Shown one piece after another: positions 16,511-51,475 of a DNA stretch of 64,000 bases. A model generated the notes under the pieces. That model ran no database searches and was not told the DNA's origin. It saw only the letters and a program-made list of their open reading frames with translations. Numbering within the stretch: the first letter of the stretch is position 1; the number at the start of each line of letters is the position of its first letter. The stretch lies in contig JAHQWG010000047.1 in the NCBI GenBank assembly GCA_029856045.1, positions 1 to 64,000 of the forward strand, in the 5' to 3' direction. A program made the position numbers and the translations under genes. This DNA comes from Promethearchaeia archaeon. Its GTDB lineage: Archaea > Asgardarchaeota > Lokiarchaeia > Sigyniarchaeales > SOKP01.

Positions 16511-17902
16511 TTGATTAGTATTAATCCTATTATTCCTAAAAGTGGTTTTTTAACTGATAATAATATTATTTTAGCAACTGATTTTTATGAATTAACAATG
16601 AGTGCCGGATATTTTCAATATAATTTAGAGAATTCTATTGATGATCAAAATGACATATCAACTTTTGAAATATTTGTAAGAAAACTTCCTCGAAACAGAA
16701 ATTATCTAATTTTTGCTGGGCTTGAACAAGTCATACATTATTTAAAAAATGCACGATTTAATGAAAGAACGATCGAATATTTCCGAAGTAGAGAAGATTT
16801 TAATAATATAAATCCTAAATTTTTCGACGAGTATCTACCTAATTTTAAATTTGATCTCGATGTGTGGTCAATCCCAGAAGGACAATTTTTTTTCCCAAAT
16901 GAGCCAATCATGAGAATTGAGGGGCCAACAATTCAAGCACAGTTAGCTGAAACATACATACTGAATGTGATTACTTATCAAACTGCAGTAGCATCTAAAG
17001 CGTCAAGAATAAGAAATGTGTCTGGAAACCGAATAATTTTAGATTTTGGAACGAGACGTTCTCATAGCCCATTAGCAGGAATTTATGCTGCCCGTGCAAG
17101 TTATATTGCAGGATTTAATGGTACGAGCAACTGTGTGGCTGATTTGGAGTTGGGTATTAAAGCATCTGGAACAATGGCTCATTCATGGGTTCAAAGATTC
17201 CCTACAGAGCTAGAGAGTTTTAAAGCTTTTTATAAAATTTATGGAAAGAACTCAATTCTACTCATAGATACATATGATATTAAAAAAGGTACATTAAATG
17301 CATGTAAGACAGCTAAGGATATAAAAGGTGTGAGGATTGATTCGGGTGATCTTGCGGAAAATTCGAAAATTGTGAGAAAAATATTGGATGAAAATGGTCT
17401 TAAGAATGCAATTATTACATTAAGTAGCGATTTAAATGAGCATAAAATAAAAGATTTAATCGAAAAAGGGGCGCCCGCTGATGCTTTTGGTGTAGGTACT
17501 GAAATGGTTACAAGTCGGGATGATCCTGTTGTGAATAGCGTTTACAAACTGATACAACATAATGGAATTCCTAAGATTAAAATTAGCGAAGGAAAAATCA
17601 CATATCCTGGAAAAAAACAGGTTTATAGAGTATATGATGAGAATGGAAAATTTACAAAAGATATACTAATGCTAAAAAATGAAACTTCGCCTGAAGAAAC
17701 CGAGCCAATTATGATCCCAATTATGAAAAAAGGAAAATTGATCTATGAATTACCGGCTTTGGATGAGATCCAACAATTTTATTTTAAAAATATGGAAAAA
17801 TTACCGGAAGAATATAAAAAATTAGAACAATTAAACCTTTTTAGATTAAAATTATCAAATGGTATTAAAGAATTAACCCAAAAATTAAAGAATCAATATT
17901 AG
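16511..17902 (+). CDS. pncB: Nicotinate phosphoribosyltransferase (NAPRTase family)
   Basis: N-terminal LATDFYELTM, then ILDFGTRRSHS, GTSNCVA, AHSWVQ and RIDSGDL motifs, all typical of NAPRTase. TTG start. Confidence 0.8.
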   Translation: MISINPIIPKSGFLTDNNIILATDFYELTMSAGYFQYNLENSIDDQNDISTFEIFVRKLPRNRNYLIFAGLEQVIHYLKNARFNERTIEYFRSREDFNNINPKFFDEYLPNFKFDLDVWSIPEGQFFFPNEPIMRIEGPTIQAQLAETYILNVITYQTAVASKASRIRNVSGNRIILDFGTRRSHSPLAGIYAARASYIAGFNGTSNCVADLELGIKASGTMAHSWVQRFPTELESFKAFYKIYGKNSILLIDTYDIKKGTLNACKTAKDIKGVRIDSGDLAENSKIVRKILDENGLKNAIITLSSDLNEHKIKDLIEKGAPADAFGVGTEMVTSRDDPVVNSVYKLIQHNGIPKIKISEGKITYPGKKQVYRVYDENGKFTKDILMLKNETSPEETEPIMIPIMKKGKLIYELPALDEIQQFYFKNMEKLPEEYKKLEQLNLFRLKLSNGIKELTQKLKNQY

Positions 17903-19367: not shown

Positions 19368-20207
19368 TTAAATTGAAGATAGCAATAATATGGGAATCAC
19401 TATTATGATAGAAATTATCCCATATAATATGCAAAAATACCCAAATTGTATCTTTTGAGCAACTCTAATTAAAAATTCAATAGTTAAGTATCCGACTCCA
19501 AAACTAATCAATGTTGATAGAATTATAATTATCGGATCTAAAGTTCCCAAGATAGATCCCTCTCCAAATATAATATCTACTCCAATGGAAGCAATAGCTA
19601 CAGGAGCAGACATTAAAAAACTCAGCTTCAATGCAGAAGAATGCTCGTATTTTTCTCCAAGTATTGTCGAAACGGTGACACCAGAACGAGATATACCTGG
19701 CAAAATTGAACATCCTTGAATTAAACCAGCTAAGAAGCTATGTTTAAAGATTTTTTGATCTTCAATGTCATTTATTGTATTCTTTCCATAATCTTTTCTT
19801 ATTTTTAGTAAAATAATACCAGTAATAATTAGAAATCCTGAAATGATTAAAGTTATTAAATCTCCTTGAAATGCAGAAAAACTATCCTTAATTAAGAAAT
19901 AGAGTGGTAAAGCCGTAATAGCCGTACCAATGGTTGCAAAGATCACCCAATTTCTTTTTTTAATATCAATATCCTCTACTTCAAATATATTGGGCAAAAA
20001 AGATTGAATTATTTTTGTATAATCAGTCCTAAATTTCAAAAGAACCGCAATTGTCGTTCCTAAATGAAGCCATATGGCCAAACTGAATGCTTGATCTGGA
20101 GGTATTCCAAAAACGTTGATTGAAAAGATCATAACCTGTCCAGAGGAGGAAATGGGGAGCCATTCAAAAAGCCCTTGAAGAATTGCCAATATTATATACT
20201 CAATCAT
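19368..20207 (-). CDS. uppP: Undecaprenyl-diphosphate phosphatase (UppP/BacA)
   Basis: N-terminus ILAILQGLFEWLPISSSGQ matches the UppP signature (EGLTEFLPVSSTGH). 279 aa, polytopic. Confidence 0.8.
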   Translation of the reverse strand: MIEYIILAILQGLFEWLPISSSGQVMIFSINVFGIPPDQAFSLAIWLHLGTTIAVLLKFRTDYTKIIQSFLPNIFEVEDIDIKKRNWVIFATIGTAITALPLYFLIKDSFSAFQGDLITLIISGFLIITGIILLKIRKDYGKNTINDIEDQKIFKHSFLAGLIQGCSILPGISRSGVTVSTILGEKYEHSSALKLSFLMSAPVAIASIGVDIIFGEGSILGTLDPIIIILSTLISFGVGYLTIEFLIRVAQKIQFGYFCILYGIISIIIVIPILLLSSI

Positions 20208-20385: not shown

Positions 20386-22593
20386 TTAATAAGCACCATG
20401 TTCTGTTCTTTCAATGATTTCATTTTGTAAATCAACACCAAGATTAACATAATAATCACTATAACCAGCAACTCGCACTATCAAATTTCTATATTTTTCT
20501 GGATTTTTTTGAGCTTCGCGTAAAGTCTCTGCTGAGACTACATTAAATTGAACGTGATGTCCATCCATTTTAAAATAAGCTCTGATTAAATGCGCCAGTT
20601 TTTCAATACCAATATCGTCAGCTAATAATTTTGGTGTAAATTTTTGATTTAGTAATGTACCTCCAGTTCTAAGATGATCAATCTTTGCTGCGGATTTTAT
20701 AACGGCTGTAGGACCATGGGTATCTGCCCCTTGAACAGGTGAAATTCCTTCGGATAATGGAGTATATGCCTTTCGACCATCAGGAGTTGCCCCAATTACG
20801 CTACCAAAGTAAATATGTACCGTTGTTGGAAGAAGATTCACGCGATGATGACCGCCTTTAGTGTTAGGTCGTCCATCAATTGCTTTATAATATAATTCAA
20901 AAATTTGTTGCATAGTCTCATCTGCATAATCATCATCGTTTCCATATTTCGGTGTATCAGTTATAAATAGTTGTCGTAAGGTTTCCGAATTCTTGAAATT
21001 ATCTTTTAAAATCCTTAACATTTGCTGCATATTTATCCGTTTCTTATCAAATACGTTATATTTAATTGAAACTAAAGAATCAGTTATACTACCCAAACCA
21101 ACGCCTTGAATATAGGATGTATTATATCTGGCTCCACCATTATTATAATCTTTTCCTTTTAAGATACAATCATTTATTAATAAGGACATAAAAGGTGCTG
21201 GCAGTGTTTGAGCCCATAGCTGCTCGATAATATTATTTCCTTTAATTTTAATATCAATAAAATAATTTACTTGTTTTGAAAATGCTTCAAAGACTTCCTT
21301 AAAAATTTGAAATTTTGTTGGATCACCAGTTTTCAACCCGATCTCTTTACCAGTTATTGGATCAATACCATTATTCAATGTAATCTCTAATATCTTTACG
21401 AGATTGAAATAACCCGTAAGAATATAAGCCTCCTTTCCAAAAGCACCTGCTTCAACACAACCGCTGGCACCACCAGTTCGAGCATCAATTATTGATTTCC
21501 CTTGCCTAGTTAATTCTTGAATAATAGCATCAATATTAAATATAGATGGTTGTCCGAATCCTGTTTTGACGATTTGAAGAGCCCGTTTTAAAAATTCATT
21601 CGGTGTTTTTTTGCTGATTTGCACATTGGAACTTGGTTGAACAATTCTCATCTCCTCTATAACATCAAGAATCATATATGAAAGTTCATTAACAGCATTT
21701 GTTCCATCTTCTTTTAAGCCACCCAAGTTTATATTGCAAAAATCCGTATAAGTATTACTTTCCTCAGCTGTAACCCCCACTTTTGGAGGAGCAGGTTGGT
21801 TATTAAATTTGACCCAGAAAGCTTCTAATAATTCTTTTGCATCTTCATATGTGATTGTTCCATTCTCTCGATCTTTCTTATAGAAGGGATATAAATGTTG
21901 ATCAAGATGACCTGGATTAAAGGAATCCCATGTGTTATATTCTGTGATCACCCCAAGATGAATAAACCAATAATGTTGCAGTGCCTCCCATATAGTTCTA
22001 GGTGCATGTGCCGGAACATATTCGCAAATCTCTGCTATTTTTTCTAATTCATGCTTTCTCTTGACATTTTCTTCATCTCTTGCTAAATCTTTTGCTTTTT
22101 CAGAATGGAGTTTAGCAAAGATTATTAACGCATCTGCACAAATATCCATTGCTTTTAATTCTTCTCTTTTATTGAAAGCGTCGGGATCATTATAAAAATC
22201 TAAATTTTCAATACTTTCTTTAATTTCCTTTTTTAAATCCAGAAATCCTTTCGTAAAGATTTTTTTATCGCCCACTGTGTGACCAGGTGCTCTTTGTTCC
22301 ATAAATTCAGTAAAAACTCCTGCTTCATATGCTTCTATCCATTCTGAATCTAGTTTTTCAAAAATCTTATCTCTAATTGAACGCCCTTTCCAAAACGGGA
22401 TAATAATATCCTTAGTTAATTGTTTTGTCTCATCACTTACTATAAAAGAAATCTTTTCTCGAGAGTTGAGAATATCAAGGTCTTTAAGACTATGACAACA
22501 TACTTCCGGATATGTTGGTGTAGCTTTTGGTTCGGGACCTCTTTCTCCTACAATAAGCTCCTCATCGTTAATACAGATTTTTTTATGTTCCAA
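20386..22593 (-). CDS. Glycyl-radical enzyme, PFL-like dehydratase/lyase class (PflD/YbiW-like). The true N-terminus probably extends to about 22752 (see finding)
   Basis: C-terminal glycyl-radical motif RVAGYSDYYVNLG. Active-site GASGCVEAG (Cys-x-Glu, the eliminase/dehydratase type, not the PFL Cys-Cys pair). Conserved N-terminal homology continues upstream of the TTG at 22593. Confidence 0.85.
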   Translation of the reverse strand: MEHKKICINDEELIVGERGPEPKATPTYPEVCCHSLKDLDILNSREKISFIVSDETKQLTKDIIIPFWKGRSIRDKIFEKLDSEWIEAYEAGVFTEFMEQRAPGHTVGDKKIFTKGFLDLKKEIKESIENLDFYNDPDAFNKREELKAMDICADALIIFAKLHSEKAKDLARDEENVKRKHELEKIAEICEYVPAHAPRTIWEALQHYWFIHLGVITEYNTWDSFNPGHLDQHLYPFYKKDRENGTITYEDAKELLEAFWVKFNNQPAPPKVGVTAEESNTYTDFCNINLGGLKEDGTNAVNELSYMILDVIEEMRIVQPSSNVQISKKTPNEFLKRALQIVKTGFGQPSIFNIDAIIQELTRQGKSIIDARTGGASGCVEAGAFGKEAYILTGYFNLVKILEITLNNGIDPITGKEIGLKTGDPTKFQIFKEVFEAFSKQVNYFIDIKIKGNNIIEQLWAQTLPAPFMSLLINDCILKGKDYNNGGARYNTSYIQGVGLGSITDSLVSIKYNVFDKKRINMQQMLRILKDNFKNSETLRQLFITDTPKYGNDDDYADETMQQIFELYYKAIDGRPNTKGGHHRVNLLPTTVHIYFGSVIGATPDGRKAYTPLSEGISPVQGADTHGPTAVIKSAAKIDHLRTGGTLLNQKFTPKLLADDIGIEKLAHLIRAYFKMDGHHVQFNVVSAETLREAQKNPEKYRNLIVRVAGYSDYYVNLGVDLQNEIIERTEHGAY

Positions 22594-22752
22594 AATATAT
22601 TTGAAAGCAAGAGCTCTTGCAACTGGAGCAGAAAGTTTATGTGCTGCACCACTTTTATAAAAATCTGTAATTAATAACGCTCTCTCGTGGGAAAAGCTTG
22701 GTATTGCCTTACGACTCTGCTCACGTAGTTTTATTATTCTTTCATTAATAAT

Positions 22753-23562
22753 TTATCCACCTATTTTCACTTGAAAACCAAAATTTTCAAAATAATTTTT
22801 TATTTCCTCCATTTTTTCATTCGTTGGAGATTGTATGTCCTTCATTTTGTATTCCATCTTCAATTTATCGTACTTATTTTTTCCGATTCGATGATAAGGT
22901 AAAAGATTTACTCTTTTAACGTTATTTAAGGAGGAGATAAATTCTCCAAGTTGTGTAATATTTATTGCTGTATCAGTAATTTCTGGAATTATAGGAATCC
23001 TAATCAATGTTTGCTTCCCATTTTGTGATAAATACTTTAAATTTTTAATAATCTGTTTGTTGGACACTCCTGTATATTTAATATGGTTTTGATCTTCCAT
23101 GATTTTCAAATCATATAGATATAAGTCAACAAAATTATTAATTTTCTTTAGATCTTCTAAAGATGAATATCCAGAAGTATCCAAGGCGGTATGGATGTGC
23201 TGCTTTTTGCATTCATGTAATAATGAATATAAAAATTCAAGTTGCATTAAAGGTTCTCCCCCAGAAAATGTGACTCCTCCATTTGATTCCTCATAAAAAA
23301 TAATATCTTTTTCAATTTCTTCCATTATCTCATTTACAGACATTTCCCGTCCGATTATCTCTTGAGTTTCCCAGAATGCAGGTTTTTCTTTTTTATTATT
23401 GTTTTCAATAGTTATTTTTTGAGGTTCTAATCTAAGACCTTCAGGGTTATGACACCACCAGCAACTTAATGGACACCCTTTTAGAAAAATTGTAGTTCGA
23501 ATACCGGAACCATCATGAATTGCGAATTTTTTGATGTTAAATATTATTCCGGTCTCTTTCAT
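22753..23562 (-). CDS. Glycyl-radical-enzyme activating enzyme (radical SAM)
   Basis: CPLSCWWCHNPE (CxxxCxxC radical-SAM cluster in the PflA-type context), 269 aa, immediately upstream of the GRE and in the same frame. Confidence 0.85.
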   Translation of the reverse strand: MKETGIIFNIKKFAIHDGSGIRTTIFLKGCPLSCWWCHNPEGLRLEPQKITIENNNKKEKPAFWETQEIIGREMSVNEIMEEIEKDIIFYEESNGGVTFSGGEPLMQLEFLYSLLHECKKQHIHTALDTSGYSSLEDLKKINNFVDLYLYDLKIMEDQNHIKYTGVSNKQIIKNLKYLSQNGKQTLIRIPIIPEITDTAINITQLGEFISSLNNVKRVNLLPYHRIGKNKYDKLKMEYKMKDIQSPTNEKMEEIKNYFENFGFQVKIGG

Positions 23563-23779
23563 AATATATGATCTTAATTTTCAGCTTTGTTTTCTCAGTA
23601 AATCTAAGAAAATATTAATCAATTCAATTTAAATTTATTTCCTATATTAAAATCTTATAAAATATTTTGAAAATAATTAAAGAAATTTCCAATTTTAAAT
23701 GATTATACTTAAAACTTTTTCATTCTAATATTTTTTATACACTTAAATATAAAACTATAAACTCTGAGGAGCGATTATA

Positions 23780-25114
23780 ATGATGGAAAAAGAAAGTGAA
23801 ACACCACAATTAAAACGAAGAGTTTCTTTATTCGCTGTTACAATGTATGGAGTTGGAAATATTTTAGGAGCTGGTATTTATGCCCTAATAGGTGAAGTAG
23901 TAGGTATCACGGGAAATTTATCTTGGCTATCTTTCGTTTTAGCTGCAATTACTGGAGCTTTAACTGGCTTATCTTATGCCGAACTTTCAGCCATGTACCC
24001 AAAAAGTGCTGCTGAATTTGTATATGCGGAGAAAGCTTTCAACATACGAGTTTTATCGTTCATTTTAGGATGGATTATAATTTTTTCAGGTCTTTTCTCT
24101 AGTGCTACAGTTGCACTGGGCTTTGCGAATTATTTAGCTGCGTTGCTCAACATAGATTCTATATTTCTAATCGTTCCATTAGCAATAATTTTGGTTGGAA
24201 TTCTTAGCATGATAAACTTTGCGGGTATAAAAAGTTCAACATGGACAAATATTTTATTTACTTTAATAGAAGCTGCCGGTCTTGTATTTATTATTATAAT
24301 AGGAATACCTTATTTTGGTTCAGTTAATTATATTGAGCTTCCAGTTGGAGTAACTTTTACAGCTGTATTCTCTTCAATCGCACTAATTTTCTTCGCGTAT
24401 ATTGGCTTTGAGGATATTGCCAATATAGCAGAAGAAGTTAAGAAACCGGAGAAAAATTTACCTAAAGCAATAATCTATTCTTTAATTATTACAACAATTT
24501 TATATTGTTTAACCGCAATTTCCGTCGTAAGTATCTTGCCTTTTTCAGAAATTGCTGCATCACCTGATCCTTTAAGTGCTGTTACAACAGCTGCCTTAGG
24601 TCCCGTTGGGGGTTTAATAATGTCATTGATTGCACTTTTTGCAACCGCTAATACGGTTTTAATAATGTTAATAGTTACCTCTCGTATGATGTATGGAATG
24701 GCTAGAGATAAAGCCCTACCAGAATCTCTATGTAAGCTATCGGAAAAACATAGAACACCAATTATCTCTGTGTTTTTAACAATGATACTAACAATGGTCT
24801 TTACATTTTTTACTGATATTTCTATTGTAGCAAGTGCAACTGTATTTGGAGTATTAATCAATTTTCTTATAGTGAACATATGCGTTATTGTGCTAAGAAA
24901 GAAGAATCCTGATGATAAAAGACCTTTTAAACTTCGACCAAATATTGGTTGGGTGCCTATTGTGGCGCTATTGGGCTCTGTCGTTTGTATCGGACTACTT
25001 TTCACTTTTGATTGGCTAATAATCCTAATCCAAGGCATTATAATTTTAATTGGACTCATAATTTTCTATCTATTAAGAGGAAAAATCGAAACAAAAGCAT
25101 CTGCGTTAAAATAA
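23780..25114 (+). CDS. Amino-acid/polyamine/organocation (APC) superfamily permease
   Basis: 444 aa, about 12 TM helices. N-terminal FAVTMYGVGNILGAGIYALIG is typical of APC transporters. Confidence 0.75.
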   Translation: MMEKESETPQLKRRVSLFAVTMYGVGNILGAGIYALIGEVVGITGNLSWLSFVLAAITGALTGLSYAELSAMYPKSAAEFVYAEKAFNIRVLSFILGWIIIFSGLFSSATVALGFANYLAALLNIDSIFLIVPLAIILVGILSMINFAGIKSSTWTNILFTLIEAAGLVFIIIIGIPYFGSVNYIELPVGVTFTAVFSSIALIFFAYIGFEDIANIAEEVKKPEKNLPKAIIYSLIITTILYCLTAISVVSILPFSEIAASPDPLSAVTTAALGPVGGLIMSLIALFATANTVLIMLIVTSRMMYGMARDKALPESLCKLSEKHRTPIISVFLTMILTMVFTFFTDISIVASATVFGVLINFLIVNICVIVLRKKNPDDKRPFKLRPNIGWVPIVALLGSVVCIGLLFTFDWLIILIQGIIILIGLIIFYLLRGKIETKASALK

Positions 25115-27023: not shown

Positions 27024-27223
27024 TTTGTATTCAACAATTTATTTTAAAATTCTTTAATTTTAGATTTAAATTCTTTTTTCATTTTATAATTTTTCAATTT
27101 AATTTTTTTTAACAAATTTTCAAATTGTTTTTTATATTAAAATTGTAATAAGAGTATATTTTATTAAACCTTGATTAATTATATTTGGAAATATTAAGAA
27201 AATTAAAATAAGGTAATAAGGTC

Positions 27224-30163
27224 TTGGCTCAACCCAAAAAGAAAGGTAAAAAGGAAACGAGGAAAGTGAGAGAACAGGTATCTCTTTCTTCATTTATTGA
27301 AAAAAAAAAACCTAAAAAAGGAATTATTGAAGAAGAACAGCCGCAAATAGTTACCAAAGAACAAATCGAAAGGGAAATTCTAGGGATAAAGGAACCGTTA
27401 AAAATTGTTGAAAAAAAAGAGCTCGATGTTGTAGAACCTTGGGAAAAAGTTTCACAAAAAGAAGCATTAGGAGAGATTCCTAGAAATTTATATTATAAAC
27501 TTAAATCCACTAATTTTGGATTACTTGAAAAAAACACTCAATTCAAAAAGAAGGAAAGAGAATCTCCAGAAGCTGCTTATGTTAGGTTTTTAATTGAAAA
27601 TAGAATAATTACCACGAATTTAGAAAATGGGGTTTTACTAGATGTTGATTATGATGGAGGGCAAAATAAGGCATACTGTAAATTTTATGATTTAGAATCA
27701 AAGGAGATTAAAATTTGGATTGACACAACTGGTCATACACCTTACTGTTTAAGTAAAAGAAGCAAAAATGAACTTGATAACGATATTGATCTAACGAATT
27801 TCGATGGATTTGTAAGAAATGAGACAGTTAAACGATATGATTTATTACTTGATAAGGAAATTGATATGACAAAAGTCTACGGAAAAACACCCACAAGTAT
27901 CGGTGCTCGAGGAAAAGCTATAAGGGATATTTTAGGTAAAGAAAATGCTTGGGAAGCTGATATTAGATATCATCAAAATTATATTTATGATGAGGGATTA
28001 ATACCAGGATTGATTTATGAAATAAAAAATAATAAATTAATTAAAAAAGATTTTAGCGGAAGTACAAAGGAGACAATTGAAAGAGCGAAAGAACTTTCAG
28101 ATATCTTTAAAGATGAGAGTAAAGCACTAAAAGATTTTGCTAATAGGTATCTTGAGATTTTTAATACGCCCATTATTGATTTAAAAAGGGTTGCGATTGA
28201 TATCGAAATATATATGAATCCTGATGAGAAGAGAATACCAGATGCAAGTAAATCTAAAAACAGTATTATTAGTATATCTTTTGTTGGGATAGATGGATTA
28301 AAAAAGGTCTATGTATTAGAAAGAGAAGGTTTTTCAATGGGAGAAAGAATTCAGGATACTCCCAATGACTTGGAAATTGTATTTTTTAAGGATGAAAAGG
28401 ATTTGTTGATAGAAACTTTTCGAATCTTGTGGAAATATCCCGTAATTATAACATTCAATGGTGATAATTTTGATCTTAATTATTTATTCCATAGAGCAAA
28501 AAAGCTTAAAATTCCTGAACTATTAAATCCTATTCTTGTTAGAGCCGGATTTGGACCTATGCGGAACGCTGAATGTAATTTAAAGAAAGGATTACATATT
28601 GATTTATATAGCTTTTTTTCAAATCGGAGTATTAAAGGTTATGCTTTTGGAGGGGCATATGAAAGAAACTCTTTAGATTTGATAACTACAGCTTTATTAG
28701 GTGAAGGAAAATATAAGCATGAGGTAGAGATACATGAAATGCAATACAATAAATTAATCTATTATAATTATAAAGATTCTGAAATTACATTGGAATTAAC
28801 AAGGTTCAATGATTCAGTAGTGATGAACCTTATTACTATCCTTTTGAGAATGACAAAAATGCCTCTTCATGATTTAATTCGACACCAAATTTCTGCTTGG
28901 ATAAAAAATATATTTTTTTTTGAACATAGGGAAAAAGATTATCTAATCCCAAGAAGATCTGAAATAAGTGAATTAAAAAAGGGAGGGACATCGAAGTCAA
29001 TAATTGAAGGGAAAGGATTTCAAGGTGCTTTAGTTATAGATCCTGTTCCTGGCATACATTACAATGTGGTTGTATTAGATTTTGCTAGTCTGTATCCTTC
29101 GATTATAAAAGAATATAACTTATCTTACGAAACAGTTCAGTGTCCCCATGAAACTTGTAAAGATAATTTAATAAAAGGAATTTCTTATCACGTTTGCAAT
29201 AAAAGAACCGGCATATTTTCTTATGTAACTGGATTTTTCAGAGATGTTAGAGTTAAATATTTTAAACCAAAATCATCGGATAAAACCATACCACAAAAAC
29301 AGAGAAATATATACCAAGTTTTACAACAAGCACTAAAAGTGTTTATTAATGGTTCATATGGTGTATTTGGAAGTCCAAATTTCCCCTTATTTTGTTTGCC
29401 AGTTGCTGAAAGCACAACAGGTATTGGTCGATATTCGATTCAATCTGCAGCAAAGAAAGCGGAAACCCTCGATATTCAGGTTCTTTACGGCGATACTGAC
29501 TCAATTTTCTTAAAAAGTCCAACAAAGAGCCAATTAAATGAAATTTCTAATTGGAGTAAAGATGAATTGGATTTAGATTTAGAAGAAGAAAAAACTTATC
29601 AATTTTTAGCATTATCAAAACGAAAAAAGAATTATATAGGAGTATATGCAGATACAAAAACTATTGATATTAAAGGGATGACTGCTAAAAAGAGCAATAC
29701 TCCTAACTTTATTAAGAAGACTTTTGGTCAATTAACGGAAATATTAAGAGAGATTACTAATAACGAAGAATTTGATAAATCGCGCCAAAAAATTATTGAT
29801 ATTATCAGAAAAGATCGAAATGCAATTGGGAAAAAGAATGGATTTACTTTAGATGATTATATGATCTCTTTAGAATTACAAAGATCATTGGATAAATATA
29901 TCAAAACAACTCCTCAACACGTAAAAGCTGCACGAATCCTAAAAAATGTTACTAAAAAAGAACTACAAGAGAGAGATATAGTTTCATTTGTTAAAACAAG
30001 AGATAGTGAAGGAGTTAAACCATTAGAATTAGCCAAACTCGAAGATATTGATGGGAAAGCGTATAAAAATTTGTTAAAAAGTGCAGTTGAACAACTTCTT
30101 GACGCATTAGGCATATCTTATGAAGAAATTAGAGGAATAAAGAAAATGGATTCCTTTTTTTAA
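27224..30163 (+). CDS. polB: Family B DNA polymerase (catalytically intact)
   Basis: Exo I VAIDIEIY, Exo II FNGDNFDLNYL, Exo III YNYKDSEITLEL, motif A DFASLYPSII, motif B KVFINGSYGVFG, motif C YGDTDS. N-terminal K/E-rich extension of about 115 aa. C-terminal KKMDSFF is PIP-like. Confidence 0.9.
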   Translation: MAQPKKKGKKETRKVREQVSLSSFIEKKKPKKGIIEEEQPQIVTKEQIEREILGIKEPLKIVEKKELDVVEPWEKVSQKEALGEIPRNLYYKLKSTNFGLLEKNTQFKKKERESPEAAYVRFLIENRIITTNLENGVLLDVDYDGGQNKAYCKFYDLESKEIKIWIDTTGHTPYCLSKRSKNELDNDIDLTNFDGFVRNETVKRYDLLLDKEIDMTKVYGKTPTSIGARGKAIRDILGKENAWEADIRYHQNYIYDEGLIPGLIYEIKNNKLIKKDFSGSTKETIERAKELSDIFKDESKALKDFANRYLEIFNTPIIDLKRVAIDIEIYMNPDEKRIPDASKSKNSIISISFVGIDGLKKVYVLEREGFSMGERIQDTPNDLEIVFFKDEKDLLIETFRILWKYPVIITFNGDNFDLNYLFHRAKKLKIPELLNPILVRAGFGPMRNAECNLKKGLHIDLYSFFSNRSIKGYAFGGAYERNSLDLITTALLGEGKYKHEVEIHEMQYNKLIYYNYKDSEITLELTRFNDSVVMNLITILLRMTKMPLHDLIRHQISAWIKNIFFFEHREKDYLIPRRSEISELKKGGTSKSIIEGKGFQGALVIDPVPGIHYNVVVLDFASLYPSIIKEYNLSYETVQCPHETCKDNLIKGISYHVCNKRTGIFSYVTGFFRDVRVKYFKPKSSDKTIPQKQRNIYQVLQQALKVFINGSYGVFGSPNFPLFCLPVAESTTGIGRYSIQSAAKKAETLDIQVLYGDTDSIFLKSPTKSQLNEISNWSKDELDLDLEEEKTYQFLALSKRKKNYIGVYADTKTIDIKGMTAKKSNTPNFIKKTFGQLTEILREITNNEEFDKSRQKIIDIIRKDRNAIGKKNGFTLDDYMISLELQRSLDKYIKTTPQHVKAARILKNVTKKELQERDIVSFVKTRDSEGVKPLELAKLEDIDGKAYKNLLKSAVEQLLDALGISYEEIRGIKKMDSFF

Positions 30164-47082: not shown

Positions 47083-47850
47083 CTACCTCGATTTTTTGTT
47101 TTTTTTCTTTCTTTTTCTTTCCTTCTTATTATTGTATTCGTAATTATTAGAGTTTTCGTCTCTCCAAGCTAATAAATCATCGATATGAGACGCACCGGTA
47201 ATTTTTAAGTACGCTTCTTCCAAGTCTTTAGCACCAACAGATTCAATTATTTCTTTTGGAGTACCTTCAACTTTTAGTTCTCCGTCAATAATAATACCAA
47301 TCATATCGCATAATTCTTCAGCCGCATCGAGAAAGTGAGTACAAATGAAAATGGTCTTGTCCGCTTTTTTAGCGAGTTCAGAAATAAGGTCTTTTACCAT
47401 TCTGGCAGCAGCAGGGTCTAAATTCGATGTCGGTTCGTCTAAAAAGATTATTTCAGGATCTTGGATCAACGCTGCACATAAACAAACCTTCTGTTTCATA
47501 CCCCTAGAATAACTCTCTAAAAGATCGTTTTCTCGACCTTCTAAGTCAAACATCTCTAATAACTCATCAATGCGAGTGGAAATCACATCTTTCGGTAAGT
47601 AATACAACTCACCGATAAATTCTAAGAATTCTCTCGCACTAAGTTTAGAATATAAACCAGGAGATTCTGGTAAAAATCCGCAAATCCTTCTTATATCATC
47701 GCTTTGAGTAATTAAATTATACCCGCCAACCGATGCATTCCCAGAAGTTCTAGAAATAATTGCGTTAAGTACTCTTACAGTTGTGGTTTTACCTGCCCCA
47801 TTTGGTCCTAATAGACCATAAGTTTTTCCGTAAGGAATCTGTAAATTCAA
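47083..47850 (-). CDS. ABC transporter ATP-binding protein. The real N-terminus probably extends to about 47930 (no canonical start; see finding)
   Basis: Walker A GPNGAGKTTT, signature YSRGMKQK, Walker B IIFLDEPTSNLD, H-loop. The in-frame upstream ITESYAIRTQNLTKNFGNVLAVNN contains the A-loop aromatic residue but no ATG/GTG/TTG. Confidence 0.85.
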   Translation of the reverse strand: MNLQIPYGKTYGLLGPNGAGKTTTVRVLNAIISRTSGNASVGGYNLITQSDDIRRICGFLPESPGLYSKLSAREFLEFIGELYYLPKDVISTRIDELLEMFDLEGRENDLLESYSRGMKQKVCLCAALIQDPEIIFLDEPTSNLDPAAARMVKDLISELAKKADKTIFICTHFLDAAEELCDMIGIIIDGELKVEGTPKEIIESVGAKDLEEAYLKITGASHIDDLLAWRDENSNNYEYNNKKERKRKKKNKKSR

Positions 47851-48174
47851 ATTATTAACTGCAAGAACATTCCCAAAATTTTTTGTAAGGTTTTGGGTCC
47901 TTATAGCATAACTTTCAGTAATTTTTGACCACCTTATTTTTTTTTGATTTTTTGGTAATTTAATTTAATTTATAATTATAAAGCACTCTGTGATATATAA
48001 GGCTTTGCATCCCAAAGTCATTTGCAATTATTAATTTTTTTATTAAAATATTTACTTCCTTTCTAACGTCCAAAATTAGGGCGTAAAAATATTTATCATA
48101 AAAAAGAAACAAGATTTTCAGAATTAAAACGAAAATTTAAATAAAATGATAAAAAATGGCATTTTATTAAAGAA

Positions 48175-49081: not shown

Positions 49082-51475
49082 TTAAGCAAAATTCAACAGC
49101 GTCTTTTGAAGTTTTCTTTCTTCATTTCTCGATTTTATTGAATTTTCCAAATCTGGCAATTCAAAGGGGATGATATTTTTAAATGCACGAGTTAGGAGTT
49201 CTTTATATTTCTCCTTATCATATTGATGTTTTTTTGGGTTGTACAGTTCCGAAAGGATTACTTTCTTATGTGCTGAACCTGGGTCAGCTTCAGCGTTTGT
49301 AATGATAAATTTTACTTTTTGACCCGCAGACACTGGCACCCCTGCCTTCTCCTTTTGGTTAGCAGCAACTGCTTGATATGAATTTACTTTGTACTGCGAA
49401 GGTTTTCGGGAAACTCTTATTATGACGCTAAGCTCTTCAGTCGTTACATTTCCACTATCAATTTTATCTAAATAATGATATAAAACGCGTTTTGCTTCAG
49501 GGATCTTTGACAAAAATTGTTCTTTGGTTTTCACATTCAAAAAGACATTAATCATTGCCTTCTGTGCCTCTTTCACGATTCTTGGTGTATCTCTGCGTCT
49601 AATATCAATTCCTCTCAGTTTAGTTGTCCCATCGACTCTTACCCCCCAGTAATGATTGAGTGTAGGTATTTTTGGATTCGCACGAGAGGGCATGAATACA
49701 ATGAAATTATATATTCCTTCAATATTAATTGGAATTTTTGTTGCTTCTTCTATTCTTTTGCAAATTTCTTCGCAATCTTTACTAAATTGCTCACTTGAGG
49801 TACCTTTTTTATTTTCTATGAATAGGGAGTCTACAATGCCGTGAATTATTTTATAGCCATATTCACGAGCAATTTCTGCCGATTGCAGTAAGAACTCACG
49901 AGAATACGCACAAACAGTTTGATGCGCCTCTATTCGCCCAAATCGTGAATTCTTGAATCCCAAATATCCAAATGAAACAACGAGTATCCATTTTAACGCT
50001 TTCTGCATATATTTGTACTTAATATCTCCAGTCTCTTTCGCGATTCGTTTGTATACTAATCTTTTTCTCAAAGGAATCTCAATTGATTTTGAAACAATAC
50101 CCCGTCGTTTCTTACAGATATGAAAGTTCAATCCCGGAACTTGAATTGCTGAAGGATCATCTTTGCAACATTTACAATTGAGGGTTTCGGGTGAGATATT
50201 ATATATACTCATTAATGAGGGGTACATTGAAGCAAAATCTAATTCAGCAACATTATTAAACACTCCGATCTTTGGCTCAAAGATATGCCCACCCCTATCT
50301 GCTAAAATTAAATCGAGAGCTGTTTTGAAGTCTTCTGCATTACTTTTTAAAGGTGGAATAAGAATATCCGACTGATAAGCGTTATAGAATTGAATTGATT
50401 GTAGGGCGCCACCAATTGTAACTCGGGTAAGTCGTTGTATTGGAACTCGGGACACTCGCGCAACTTCAAGGACCCCTGGTATGTTGCCATCGATGAAATG
50501 AAGGCTTCCGTAGGCTGAAGAGTCCAAATGAAATCGACCAGTTAAATAACATTGGGTTTGCGAACGACGATATATGATCCCGTAGGAAAAAAAATGGTCC
50601 TCACCATTTAACTTGAATATTCCGCTCTTAAGGGGAGTTTTAGTCCGAGAGAGATAAAATCTTCTTGTAATTCGATTTGTTGAAGCCCGGGCAACTAAAT
50701 AGGGCATTCCAAATTCGTCACCCCTTGTTGTAAGAATAATATCTGGATCAATTCTTTCGATAGTTCGGACTATCTCCAACAAATTTTCCTCCTCGTCACC
50801 ATTATCAATAAGTATGGTTCTTCTAATCGGAGAATCGGCTCTAGGCATGTCTGCCTTTCTTTCATTCTCGACAATTCCTATTTCCGCGTATGCCATTGGC
50901 TCATTGAATTGTGGTTTCAAACCCTTCTGCTGGACTTTGATCTCCAACCAAACCGCCCTCAAGGGAGGCGTCTCATAAAACAAATCTTCGTTGTTATCCT
51001 TTAACTCATAAGAGAGCAAATACATTTCATTATTTTCACCCAAACTCACTGAAAAGCAACACAAAGCCATTGGAAAGAGACTATTCACGTAGAAATACAT
51101 TTGAGCAATTGGAATGTCAGTATTATATAACGTGAAATAATCAAGTTTTTCGATATCTTTTATTGTAGATTTAAATACAGAAGGCTTTTTTACTGACACC
51201 CCAAAAATCATCCTTTTTTCGCAATCGTCAATCGAGACATACTTACTGCAAAGTCTTGCTCTGACAATATTTGGGTGGGATTTGAGGATCTGCTTCAGCC
51301 TTGGAAAATCGCTTCCAAATCGCCCTTTTTTTGGAACTGCGAAAAATTCTGGCTGAAACTCAGATTTAATCTGAACTACTTGGTTTTCTTTTTTTGTTTT
51401 GACCCATAAAATAATCCCACTTGCATATGTGGTGACGTCCAATATCCATCCGTAGAAGTTCTTTATCTCAGTCAT
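49082..51475 (-). CDS. Family B DNA polymerase paralog with degenerate exonuclease and motif-C residues (PolB2-like)
   Basis: Motif A DFASMYPSLM is intact. Exo I changed to WLEI, Exo II FD changed to FG (RGDEFGMPYL), motif B KWILVVSFGYLG (N changed to V), motif C HGIVDS instead of YGDTDS. Confidence 0.8.
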   Translation of the reverse strand: MTEIKNFYGWILDVTTYASGIILWVKTKKENQVVQIKSEFQPEFFAVPKKGRFGSDFPRLKQILKSHPNIVRARLCSKYVSIDDCEKRMIFGVSVKKPSVFKSTIKDIEKLDYFTLYNTDIPIAQMYFYVNSLFPMALCCFSVSLGENNEMYLLSYELKDNNEDLFYETPPLRAVWLEIKVQQKGLKPQFNEPMAYAEIGIVENERKADMPRADSPIRRTILIDNGDEEENLLEIVRTIERIDPDIILTTRGDEFGMPYLVARASTNRITRRFYLSRTKTPLKSGIFKLNGEDHFFSYGIIYRRSQTQCYLTGRFHLDSSAYGSLHFIDGNIPGVLEVARVSRVPIQRLTRVTIGGALQSIQFYNAYQSDILIPPLKSNAEDFKTALDLILADRGGHIFEPKIGVFNNVAELDFASMYPSLMSIYNISPETLNCKCCKDDPSAIQVPGLNFHICKKRRGIVSKSIEIPLRKRLVYKRIAKETGDIKYKYMQKALKWILVVSFGYLGFKNSRFGRIEAHQTVCAYSREFLLQSAEIAREYGYKIIHGIVDSLFIENKKGTSSEQFSKDCEEICKRIEEATKIPINIEGIYNFIVFMPSRANPKIPTLNHYWGVRVDGTTKLRGIDIRRRDTPRIVKEAQKAMINVFLNVKTKEQFLSKIPEAKRVLYHYLDKIDSGNVTTEELSVIIRVSRKPSQYKVNSYQAVAANQKEKAGVPVSAGQKVKFIITNAEADPGSAHKKVILSELYNPKKHQYDKEKYKELLTRAFKNIIPFELPDLENSIKSRNEERKLQKTLLNFA

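Follow-up and report, generated by a model that had tools for sequence, protein, structure and literature searches.

In bacteria, native AUU start codons are found in the Escherichia coli genes infC and pcnB, and such non-canonical starts are policed by initiation factor 3 (IF3), whereas the Asgard archaea carry the eukaryote-type initiation factors aIF1, aIF1A and aIF2. Here we describe hypD of an Asgard archaeon, a gene for a glycyl-radical enzyme (GRE) in which the start codon has changed from ATG to ATT by a point mutation. The gene lies on the minus strand of a 64,000-nucleotide stretch from a Promethearchaeia archaeon (GenBank assembly GCA_029856045.1, contig JAHQWG010000047.1, positions 1 to 64,000; called the window below, with a G+C content of 30% that fits a Lokiarchaeal source), directly after the gene of a radical-SAM activase. 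Previously, an ATT start was described in ebpA of Enterococcus faecalis, a gene that had been mis-annotated at an ATG 120 bp downstream (PMC4447247). Natural variation of a start codon between strains is known from E. coli lacI, in which a GTG versus ATG polymorphism tunes expression and has measured fitness effects (PMC11445065). No report of AUU starts in archaea was found in the literature searched, which is no proof of their absence there, and nothing specific was found in it on HypD in Asgard archaea.

The ATG-to-ATT mutation at the hypD start codon

All features of the junction are on the minus strand. The activase gene (23562..22753; 269 aa, recognised from its translation and profile matches) ends in ...KIGG, encoded by GGT GGA TAA. 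Its stop codon TAA (22755-22753) shares the frame of hypD and stands 3 nucleotides (nt) before the ancestral hypD start, and reading on in this frame gives ATT ATT AAT GAA AGA ATA ATA AAA..., which stays open to the stop at 20388-20386. The first ATT is at 22752-22750. The second, at 22749-22747, takes the position of the ancestral start codon, with T at 22747 where the ATG of the relatives has G, and it is the codon that we propose as the AUU initiation codon. Counted from here, full-length hypD (20386..22749) has 787 codons and a stop, and includes GCVE, with the catalytic cysteine, and the glycyl-radical site RVAGYS. A Shine-Dalgarno-like (SD-like) AGGTGG at 22757..22762 lies in the last two glycine codons of the activase, so placed that its GGTGG comes 7 nt before the second ATT. 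An out-of-frame mini open reading frame (ORF), ATG AAA GAA TAA (22734..22745), begins in the +1 frame, 4 nt past the ATT; it is created by the codons AAT GAA and is common to the ATG alleles too.

The earliest ATG, GTG or TTG of the hypD frame is the TTG at 22593-22591, 52 codons past the second ATT. It is a leucine codon (in LEHKK) picked by gene callers as the start of a 735-aa product, and the public gene calls of that length in the same 90% cluster are P0121 and P0124. The 53 codons ahead of the TTG translate to IINERIIKLREQSRKAIPSFSHERALLITDFYKSGAAHKLSAPVARALAFKYI, and 51 of them (NERIIKLREQ...AFKYI; 22594..22746) encode by homology the conserved N-terminus of HypD, with no canonical start upstream. 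The window has 50 frames that stay open for 150 codons or more, and among those to which a protein family can be assigned, none has a start-codon-free stretch as long as this one of 53 codons; a longer stretch, of 74 codons, occurs only once, in an antisense frame within a thiolase gene.

The start position was compared in the best 120 HypD homologues, all of which align across the whole N-terminal stretch. In 114 of them the start residue falls exactly at the position of the second ATT (111 Met, 2 Leu and 1 Val). The typical homologue begins MNERI, mostly as MNERIKKLR or a close variant, and the window reads I-N-E-R-I-I-K-L-R from the second ATT, which is therefore the conserved start-codon position. 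Of the remaining six, four are called from further upstream and read through NERI, one (P0118) is offset by one residue and one (P0109) is called downstream. The last of these (761 aa) was considered as a second independent case in hypD and rejected, as its DNA has a normal ATG and the JGI gene caller took a downstream Met. All 13 full-length proteins of the 90% cluster start with Met, and they differ from the window protein at 7-16 other residues.

The original prediction, made from the letters of the window alone, had named the TTG at 22593 as the first canonical codon, given the same translation of the 53 codons ahead of it, placed them in frame directly after the activase TAA (22753-22755) and recognised in them the conserved N-terminus of GREs. 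Each of these claims holds: the translation is an exact match, and the stretch aligns with Pfam, with NF043068, with the structure 6vxc and with all 120 homologues, which do not start at the position of the TTG.

At the DNA level the difference comes down to one base. Relatives that are 98-99% identical read GGTGGATAAATTATGAATGAA where the window reads ...ATTATTAATGAA; likewise the ATG allele of locus L011, and of the other relatives in the 90% cluster, is GGTGGATAAATTATGAATGAAAGA against ...ATTATTAATGAAAGA in the window (elsewhere given as GGTGGATAAATTATTAATGAAAGA), and ATG stands at the hypD start also in L012, L016, L101 and L102. The sole difference between the alleles at the start is one G-to-T change, which falls on the third codon position (22747). 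The rest of the junction is identical, except that some relatives differ at a single base 28 nt upstream, and the SD motif and its spacing are the same in the ATT and ATG alleles. Synteny is also kept in the relatives, one of them in assembly GCA_030606485.1, and runs from a divergently transcribed amino-acid permease over the activase, the 3-nt gap and hypD to BacA. When 13 orthologous genes were compared between the window and L012, the start codon differed in hypD only and was unchanged in the 12 others. A metagenome-wide count of the alleles by DNA pattern returned two contigs only, both with ATG. Thus, the hypD start codon carries a strain-specific point mutation from ATG to ATT. We also considered a missing A in a homopolymer, which would bring the out-of-frame aATGaaaga into frame (MKRIIKL), and rejected it, because the relatives have a G/T substitution without change of length and the homologues read MNERI.

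The T is not confined to one assembly. The identical ATT junction was found in all nine distinct contigs (L001-L010) that are 99.7-100% identical to the window and come from four JGI metagenomes, four Logan-assembled SRA runs and one ENA assembly. A corrected base call that would create an ATG, as the original prediction had considered, is thus not what the assemblies give; the close relatives do carry an ATG at that codon. As a separate observation, the strain differences among these contigs cluster tightly in the genes flanking the operon, with 11 single-nucleotide polymorphisms (SNPs) in 225 bp in L006 (window 23756-23980), and 5 in 216 bp (19606-19821) and 5 in 301 bp (17167-17467) in L008. 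These clusters look like short recombination tracts and not like scattered mutations.

The enzyme can be assigned from its profile matches. The extended translation scores 1343.8 bits against the NCBIfam equivalog for HypD (NF043068, cut-off 1100), with residues 2-784 on profile positions 1-782 of 784. It matches the Pfam PFL-like domain PF02901 (762 bits; from residue 4, profile positions 3-647 of 647) and the glycine-radical domain PF01228 (131 bits). HypD of Clostridioides difficile (PDB 6vxc) aligns with it end to end from residue 4 (1090 bits), its RVAGYS and SGCVEAG motifs lining up with those of the window protein, and B12-independent glycerol dehydratase likewise aligns from residue 4. 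By these matches the enzyme is a predicted trans-4-hydroxy-L-proline dehydratase (HypD), and the equivalog score, taken with how closely it aligns to the characterised enzyme of C. difficile, suggests that it would dehydrate hydroxyproline to 1-pyrroline-5-carboxylate (P5C). The activase matches Pfam Radical_SAM and Fer4_12 and passes TIGR02494 (296.9 bits, cut-off 174), and its score against the HypD-activase equivalog, 336.9 bits, is under the cut-off of 425. It is of a short form, having the CX3CX2C cluster motif only and lacking the Cys-rich ferredoxin-like insert. The best 120 HypD homologues are mostly from metagenome-assembled genomes of Asgard archaea, namely Promethearchaeota (Lokiarchaeota), Heimdall-, Hod-, Hermod-, Thor- and Odinarchaeota.

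The order of the two genes and their shared frame were surveyed in 80 species-level HypD relatives from bacteria and archaea, 66-77% identical to the window protein (L021-L100). A radical-SAM activase ORF ends just upstream of hypD in 59 of the 80, and the gap between the genes is -4 to +10 nt in 57 of these 59 operons, mostly 1-4 nt and most often 1-3 nt. The activase C-terminus ...IGG is encoded in most of the 59 by codons (GGAGGxTAA or GGTGGxTAA) that give an SD-like motif. Activase-first order with tight juxtaposition is thus the rule in this HypD clade and no peculiarity of the window, contrary to the original prediction, which had held the order to be unusual; its suggestion to look at the same junction in related genomes was taken up, and the close relatives read ATG at the homologous codon. 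The two genes share one frame in 21 of the 59 operons, and gaps of 1, 2 and 4 nt occur just as often. Because this is the chance expectation, the in-frame abutment in the window is incidental and gives no support for a readthrough fusion.

Some further observations were made in the same relatives. The closest HypD relatives span Asgard archaea, Bathyarchaeia, Aminicenantes, Calditrichota, Ignavibacteria, Bacteroidota and Anaerolineae with the same activase-hypD junction, and this phylum spread with a common junction suggests that the two genes were transferred horizontally as one unit. Their activases fall into two size classes, about 251-290 and 298-328 aa, and either class is found among bacteria as well as archaea. 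In several loci of Promethearchaeota (L022-L029 and others) the upstream activase is missing and an AT-rich region takes its place.

The ABC ATPase gene with a conserved ATT

All long open frames of the window were scanned for start-codon-free stretches, and this flagged a second gene, which encodes the ATPase of an ATP-binding cassette (ABC) transporter. It covers 279 codons when counted from an ATT (47922..47083, minus strand), and gene callers give a product of 255 aa from an internal TTG. Most of its homologues, 110 of 120, begin 24 codons upstream of that TTG, typically with M(T/S)(E/K)xYAI, and four further ones run through this position via a short N-terminal extension. At the conserved start position (47922-47920) the window reads ATT ACT GAA AGT TAT GCT ATA (ITESYAI), behind an extended SD-like AGGTGGTC (47934..47927) with its GGTGG 6 nt before the ATT. 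This motif could form eight pairs with the conserved 3' end of 16S rRNA, GAUCACCU, if the rRNA of the host ends in this way.

The ATT of this gene is present in all 19 loci that were fetched (L103-L121), which belong to two lineages separated by a synonymous divergence (dS) of 0.35 and a nonsynonymous divergence (dN) of 0.042 (dN/dS 0.12). In the more distant lineage an in-frame TAA precedes the ATT by eight codons, and none of the intervening codons is ATG, GTG or TTG. Because the gene is under strong purifying selection and has no canonical start codon, it must initiate at a non-canonical one, for which the ATT, with its homologous position and the strong SD motif ahead of it, is the obvious candidate. 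The comparison of loci therefore points to a conserved AUU start. In run SRR9700625 the hypD start codon is ATG (L013) and that of the ABC gene is ATT (L117). In the first 24 codons of the ABC gene (window 47851-47922, compared with L103) dS is 0.07, from one synonymous difference, against 0.39 in the rest, which in this very small sample would fit extra constraint on the translation-initiation region.

Among the other start-codon-free stretches of the window (37136, 45387, 61606 and others) none had an SD motif followed by an in-frame ATT, and none had a domain beginning in the extension. At 61606-62244 (minus) an ORF stays open for 45 codons ahead of the TTG that is its first canonical start, and no Pfam match and no SD-like motif were found for it. 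Elsewhere, scans with Rfam and for tRNAs returned a tRNA-Thr only, which is not relevant to the junction, and the window has two family-B DNA polymerase genes (27212-30163, plus strand, about 979 aa; 49082-51475, minus strand, about 797 aa), known solely via the Pfam labels of orthologues in related loci.

Proposed initiation at AUU and its alternatives

On balance we lean towards full-length HypD (787 aa, Met-started) still being made from the AUU, at a reduced level; the use of this codon, the level of expression and any coupling to the activase are what we infer. The ribosome would be placed on the AUU by AGGUGG 7 nt upstream, and ribosomes terminating at the activase UAA 3 nt upstream may feed it by translational coupling. 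In archaea, coupling by termination and reinitiation works at intergenic distances up to about 10 nt (PMC10666635, PMC6728339), and it is documented in Haloferax, where the two genes must overlap or lie very close together and the SD motif is often inside the upstream gene (PMC6728339, PMC10666635). The junction has this layout: taking the range of about -8 to +10 nt from PMC10666635, we found both genes on the same strand, a gap of 3 nt and AGGTGG within the end of the upstream gene. SD-like 5-mers stand ahead of 8 of 44 genes of the window, compared with a background of 3.9%, and both genes with ATT have one; the count agrees with the rarity of SD sequences reported for Lokiarchaea (PMC12993045). 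Moreover, the organism appears to tolerate AUU starts, as the ABC ATPase gene 25 kb away has its conserved AUU behind the same GGUGG. Bacterial precedents also speak for such a start: in Staphylococcus aureus, AUU and AUA behind an extended SD gave about 10% of AUG expression (PMC13009471), and ebpA of E. faecalis has its ATT (PMC4447247).

The claims of the original prediction on how the gene could begin fared unequally. Initiation at ATT or ATA, one of its options, is the one favoured here and can be narrowed to the second ATT (22749-22747), the homologue of the relatives' ATG. From its option of readthrough or coupling, coupling is retained as a plausible aid in view of the 3-nt gap and the 57 of 59 related operons with such spacing, and readthrough finds no support, the shared frame being no more frequent than chance. 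From its option of an error, a sequencing error is excluded by the nine assemblies, and a disabling mutation is the main rival.

Several observations weigh against translation from the AUU. The SD motif of hypD (6 bp) is weaker than the extended 8-bp motif of the ABC gene. AUU reaches about 0.3% of ATG in E. coli, according to the citation of Hecht 2017 in PMC10666635, and in vitro the archaeal factor aIF1 selects against start codons other than the canonical ones (PMC8211752; proofreading also in PMC7531240). Given the weakness of AUU in such measurements and the proofreading by aIF1, expression of hypD is probably much reduced, and the out-of-frame ATG 4 nt downstream may in addition divert some ribosomes from the AUU. 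None of the 80 species-level relatives and none of the 13 close relatives has a non-canonical hypD start; the codon at the conserved position is ATG in 75, GTG in 4 and TTG in 1 of the 80, and as only these three were found, ATT alleles of hypD seem not to persist. The ATT haplotypes carry no SNP in hypD or the activase, L006 and L008 differing in flanking genes only, and therefore tell nothing of how selection has acted since the mutation; the allele is perhaps very young. Finally, the window branch of the activase has 6 replacements (R33S, K55N, E57K, L61P, K84E and D257Y) to 1 synonymous change, with three of the six clustered in codons 55-61, whereas replacements to synonymous changes are 0:2, 2:3 and 2:2 in the sister activase alleles.

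The alternative that survives best is a start-loss null allele, a young pseudogene in which the G-to-T change has abolished useful translation of hypD, with hydroxyproline dehydration lost in the strain and the ORF intact because the loss is recent. It would explain why no relative, near or far, has such a start and why the ATT haplotypes are so nearly identical, and the weakness of AUU, start-codon proofreading, the activase substitutions and the out-of-frame ATG all agree with it. We regard it as the less likely of the two readings. The hypD ORF is intact over its 787 codons with no frameshift or premature stop, and neither further lesions nor a dN/dS near 1, the marks of a pseudogene, were found. 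Compared with L011, L012 and L016, the window branch of hypD has M1I, 8 synonymous changes and C785G. Residue 63 is Glu in the window and Gly or Asp in every relative, so that the tally without the start codon is 8 synonymous changes to 2-3 replacements, and both residue 63 and residue 785 are variable across the family. Because the ORF is intact, the changes are mainly synonymous and the pairwise dN/dS with close relatives is 0.12-0.19, most of the hypD branch of the window appears to have been under purifying selection. The activase excess could hint, weakly at best, that constraint on the operon is relaxed; we considered it as a sign of operon decay and rejected it, as the signal is weak and each of the six sites, even R33 in the CPLxCWWC motif, is variable in a set of 62 related activases. 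The allele is also present in nine assemblies with several accession prefixes, and the same genome keeps what appears to be an AUU start on a strongly purified gene, so AUU behind GGUGG would work here. In case the allele is null after all, it would mean a strain-level loss of hydroxyproline catabolism in sediment Lokiarchaeota.

A start at the internal TTG (22593), which would give a 735-aa enzyme without the first 52 residues, is highly improbable. The TTG is the first canonical codon in frame and the choice of every public gene caller, but the residues lost are conserved in all homologues and align to the solved structures of HypD and glycerol dehydratase, the codon is in the relatives an internal Leu codon of proteins that begin 52 codons upstream, and inspection of the sequence found no SD-like motif ahead of it. 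The 735-aa product is an annotation artefact. Recoding, either by readthrough of the activase UAA to an activase-HypD fusion or by a frameshift from the mini-ORF ATG AAA GAA, is given still less credence by us. It is true that both genes are in one frame with the TAA as the only intervening stop, and that a +1-frame ATG lies 4 nt past the ATT. However, such a shared frame is met as often as chance allows in the related operons, the relatives own an ATG start, inspection of the sequence found no slippery heptamer and only poor -1 re-pairing of the tRNAs (AAA to GAA, GAA to AGA), and no stimulatory RNA structure was predicted, the folding energy of -11.9 kcal/mol over 100 nt being nearly the same for both alleles. 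Least of all do we credit a sequencing or assembly error at 22747 with G as the true base: a single base separates the window from the ATG of its relatives, but the same T in nine independent assemblies from different samples and three assembly sources (JGI, Logan and ENA) excludes it for practical purposes, and the change is a substitution with no difference in homopolymer length.

With translation of hypD from its AUU as the reading that we prefer, it may be asked whether this clade of Lokiarchaeota regularly uses AUU as a start codon open to selection, so that the ATT would be no one-off lesion. An ATT at the conserved start position behind GGUGG was found in 2 of about 46 genes in the 64-kb window, and we put this wider proposal forward tentatively, as one that falls somewhat short of an even chance. 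If it were true, the Asgard ribosome with aIF1, aIF1A and aIF2 proofreading would accept AUU once strong SD pairing fixes the ribosome, and current Asgard gene catalogues would systematically shorten such genes.

Comparison with known systems

Both genes are public only as shortened products (735 versus 787 aa for HypD and 255 versus 279 aa for the ABC ATPase), and neither of the full-length, Met-started proteins is among 15 billion public protein sequences, so that none of the annotation pipelines behind that collection has picked these starts. Because both are recorded with shortened N-termini, metabolic reconstructions of this Lokiarchaeon carry damaged models. At the same time, hypD forms a natural ATG/ATT pair in near-identical strains, which makes it a ready test of the efficiency of near-cognate initiation in Asgard archaea, and also of the rescue of AUU initiation by an SD motif and upstream termination 3 nt away. 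The conserved AUU of the ABC gene suggests that this efficiency is not zero.

As enzymes, the HypD of the window and that of C. difficile (6vxc) belong to the same family, with end-to-end alignment, GCVE and RVAGY motifs and an adjacent radical-SAM activase. In C. difficile the order is GRE then activase, whereas in the window the activase comes first with a 3-nt gap, is short (269 aa) and belongs to an archaeal host. The junction resembles the coupled gene pairs of Haloferax volcanii (Huber et al. 2019 and a 2023 follow-up) in that functional partners lie on the same strand with a very short gap and an SD motif in the 3' end of the upstream gene. However, the pairs studied in Haloferax overlap (ATGA or TGATG) and have canonical starts, while the window has a 3-nt gap and an AUU, and coupling there is our reading of the layout.

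The allelic side of the case has its closest likeness in lacI of E. coli, in which a single-nucleotide difference in the start codon also separates strains; in both genes such a change would alter the dose of a metabolic gene product. The lacI variant is a canonical GTG in a regulator, and that of hypD is a non-canonical codon in a catabolic enzyme.

The nearest systems for the start codon itself are the bacterial AUU genes infC, pcnB, ebpA and S. aureus cvfC1 (PMC13009471). As would be the case for the two genes of the window, they have a near-cognate AUU at the true start, a good or extended SD motif and normal spacing, and in ebpA, as in hypD, the annotation picked a downstream canonical codon. 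In these bacterial genes expression is attenuated compared with AUG and the AUU is conserved across strains or species, whereas the ATT of hypD is a recent allele of a single lineage; it is the putative AUU start of the ABC ATPase that is the counterpart of the conserved bacterial ones. The hosts also differ, the known AUU genes being bacterial and the window belonging to an Asgard archaeon with eukaryote-type factors. While AUU starts backed by an SD motif were already known in bacteria, what is new here is the Asgard host, a recent ATT of hypD beside ATG alleles, and a second, conserved ATT start in the same genome.

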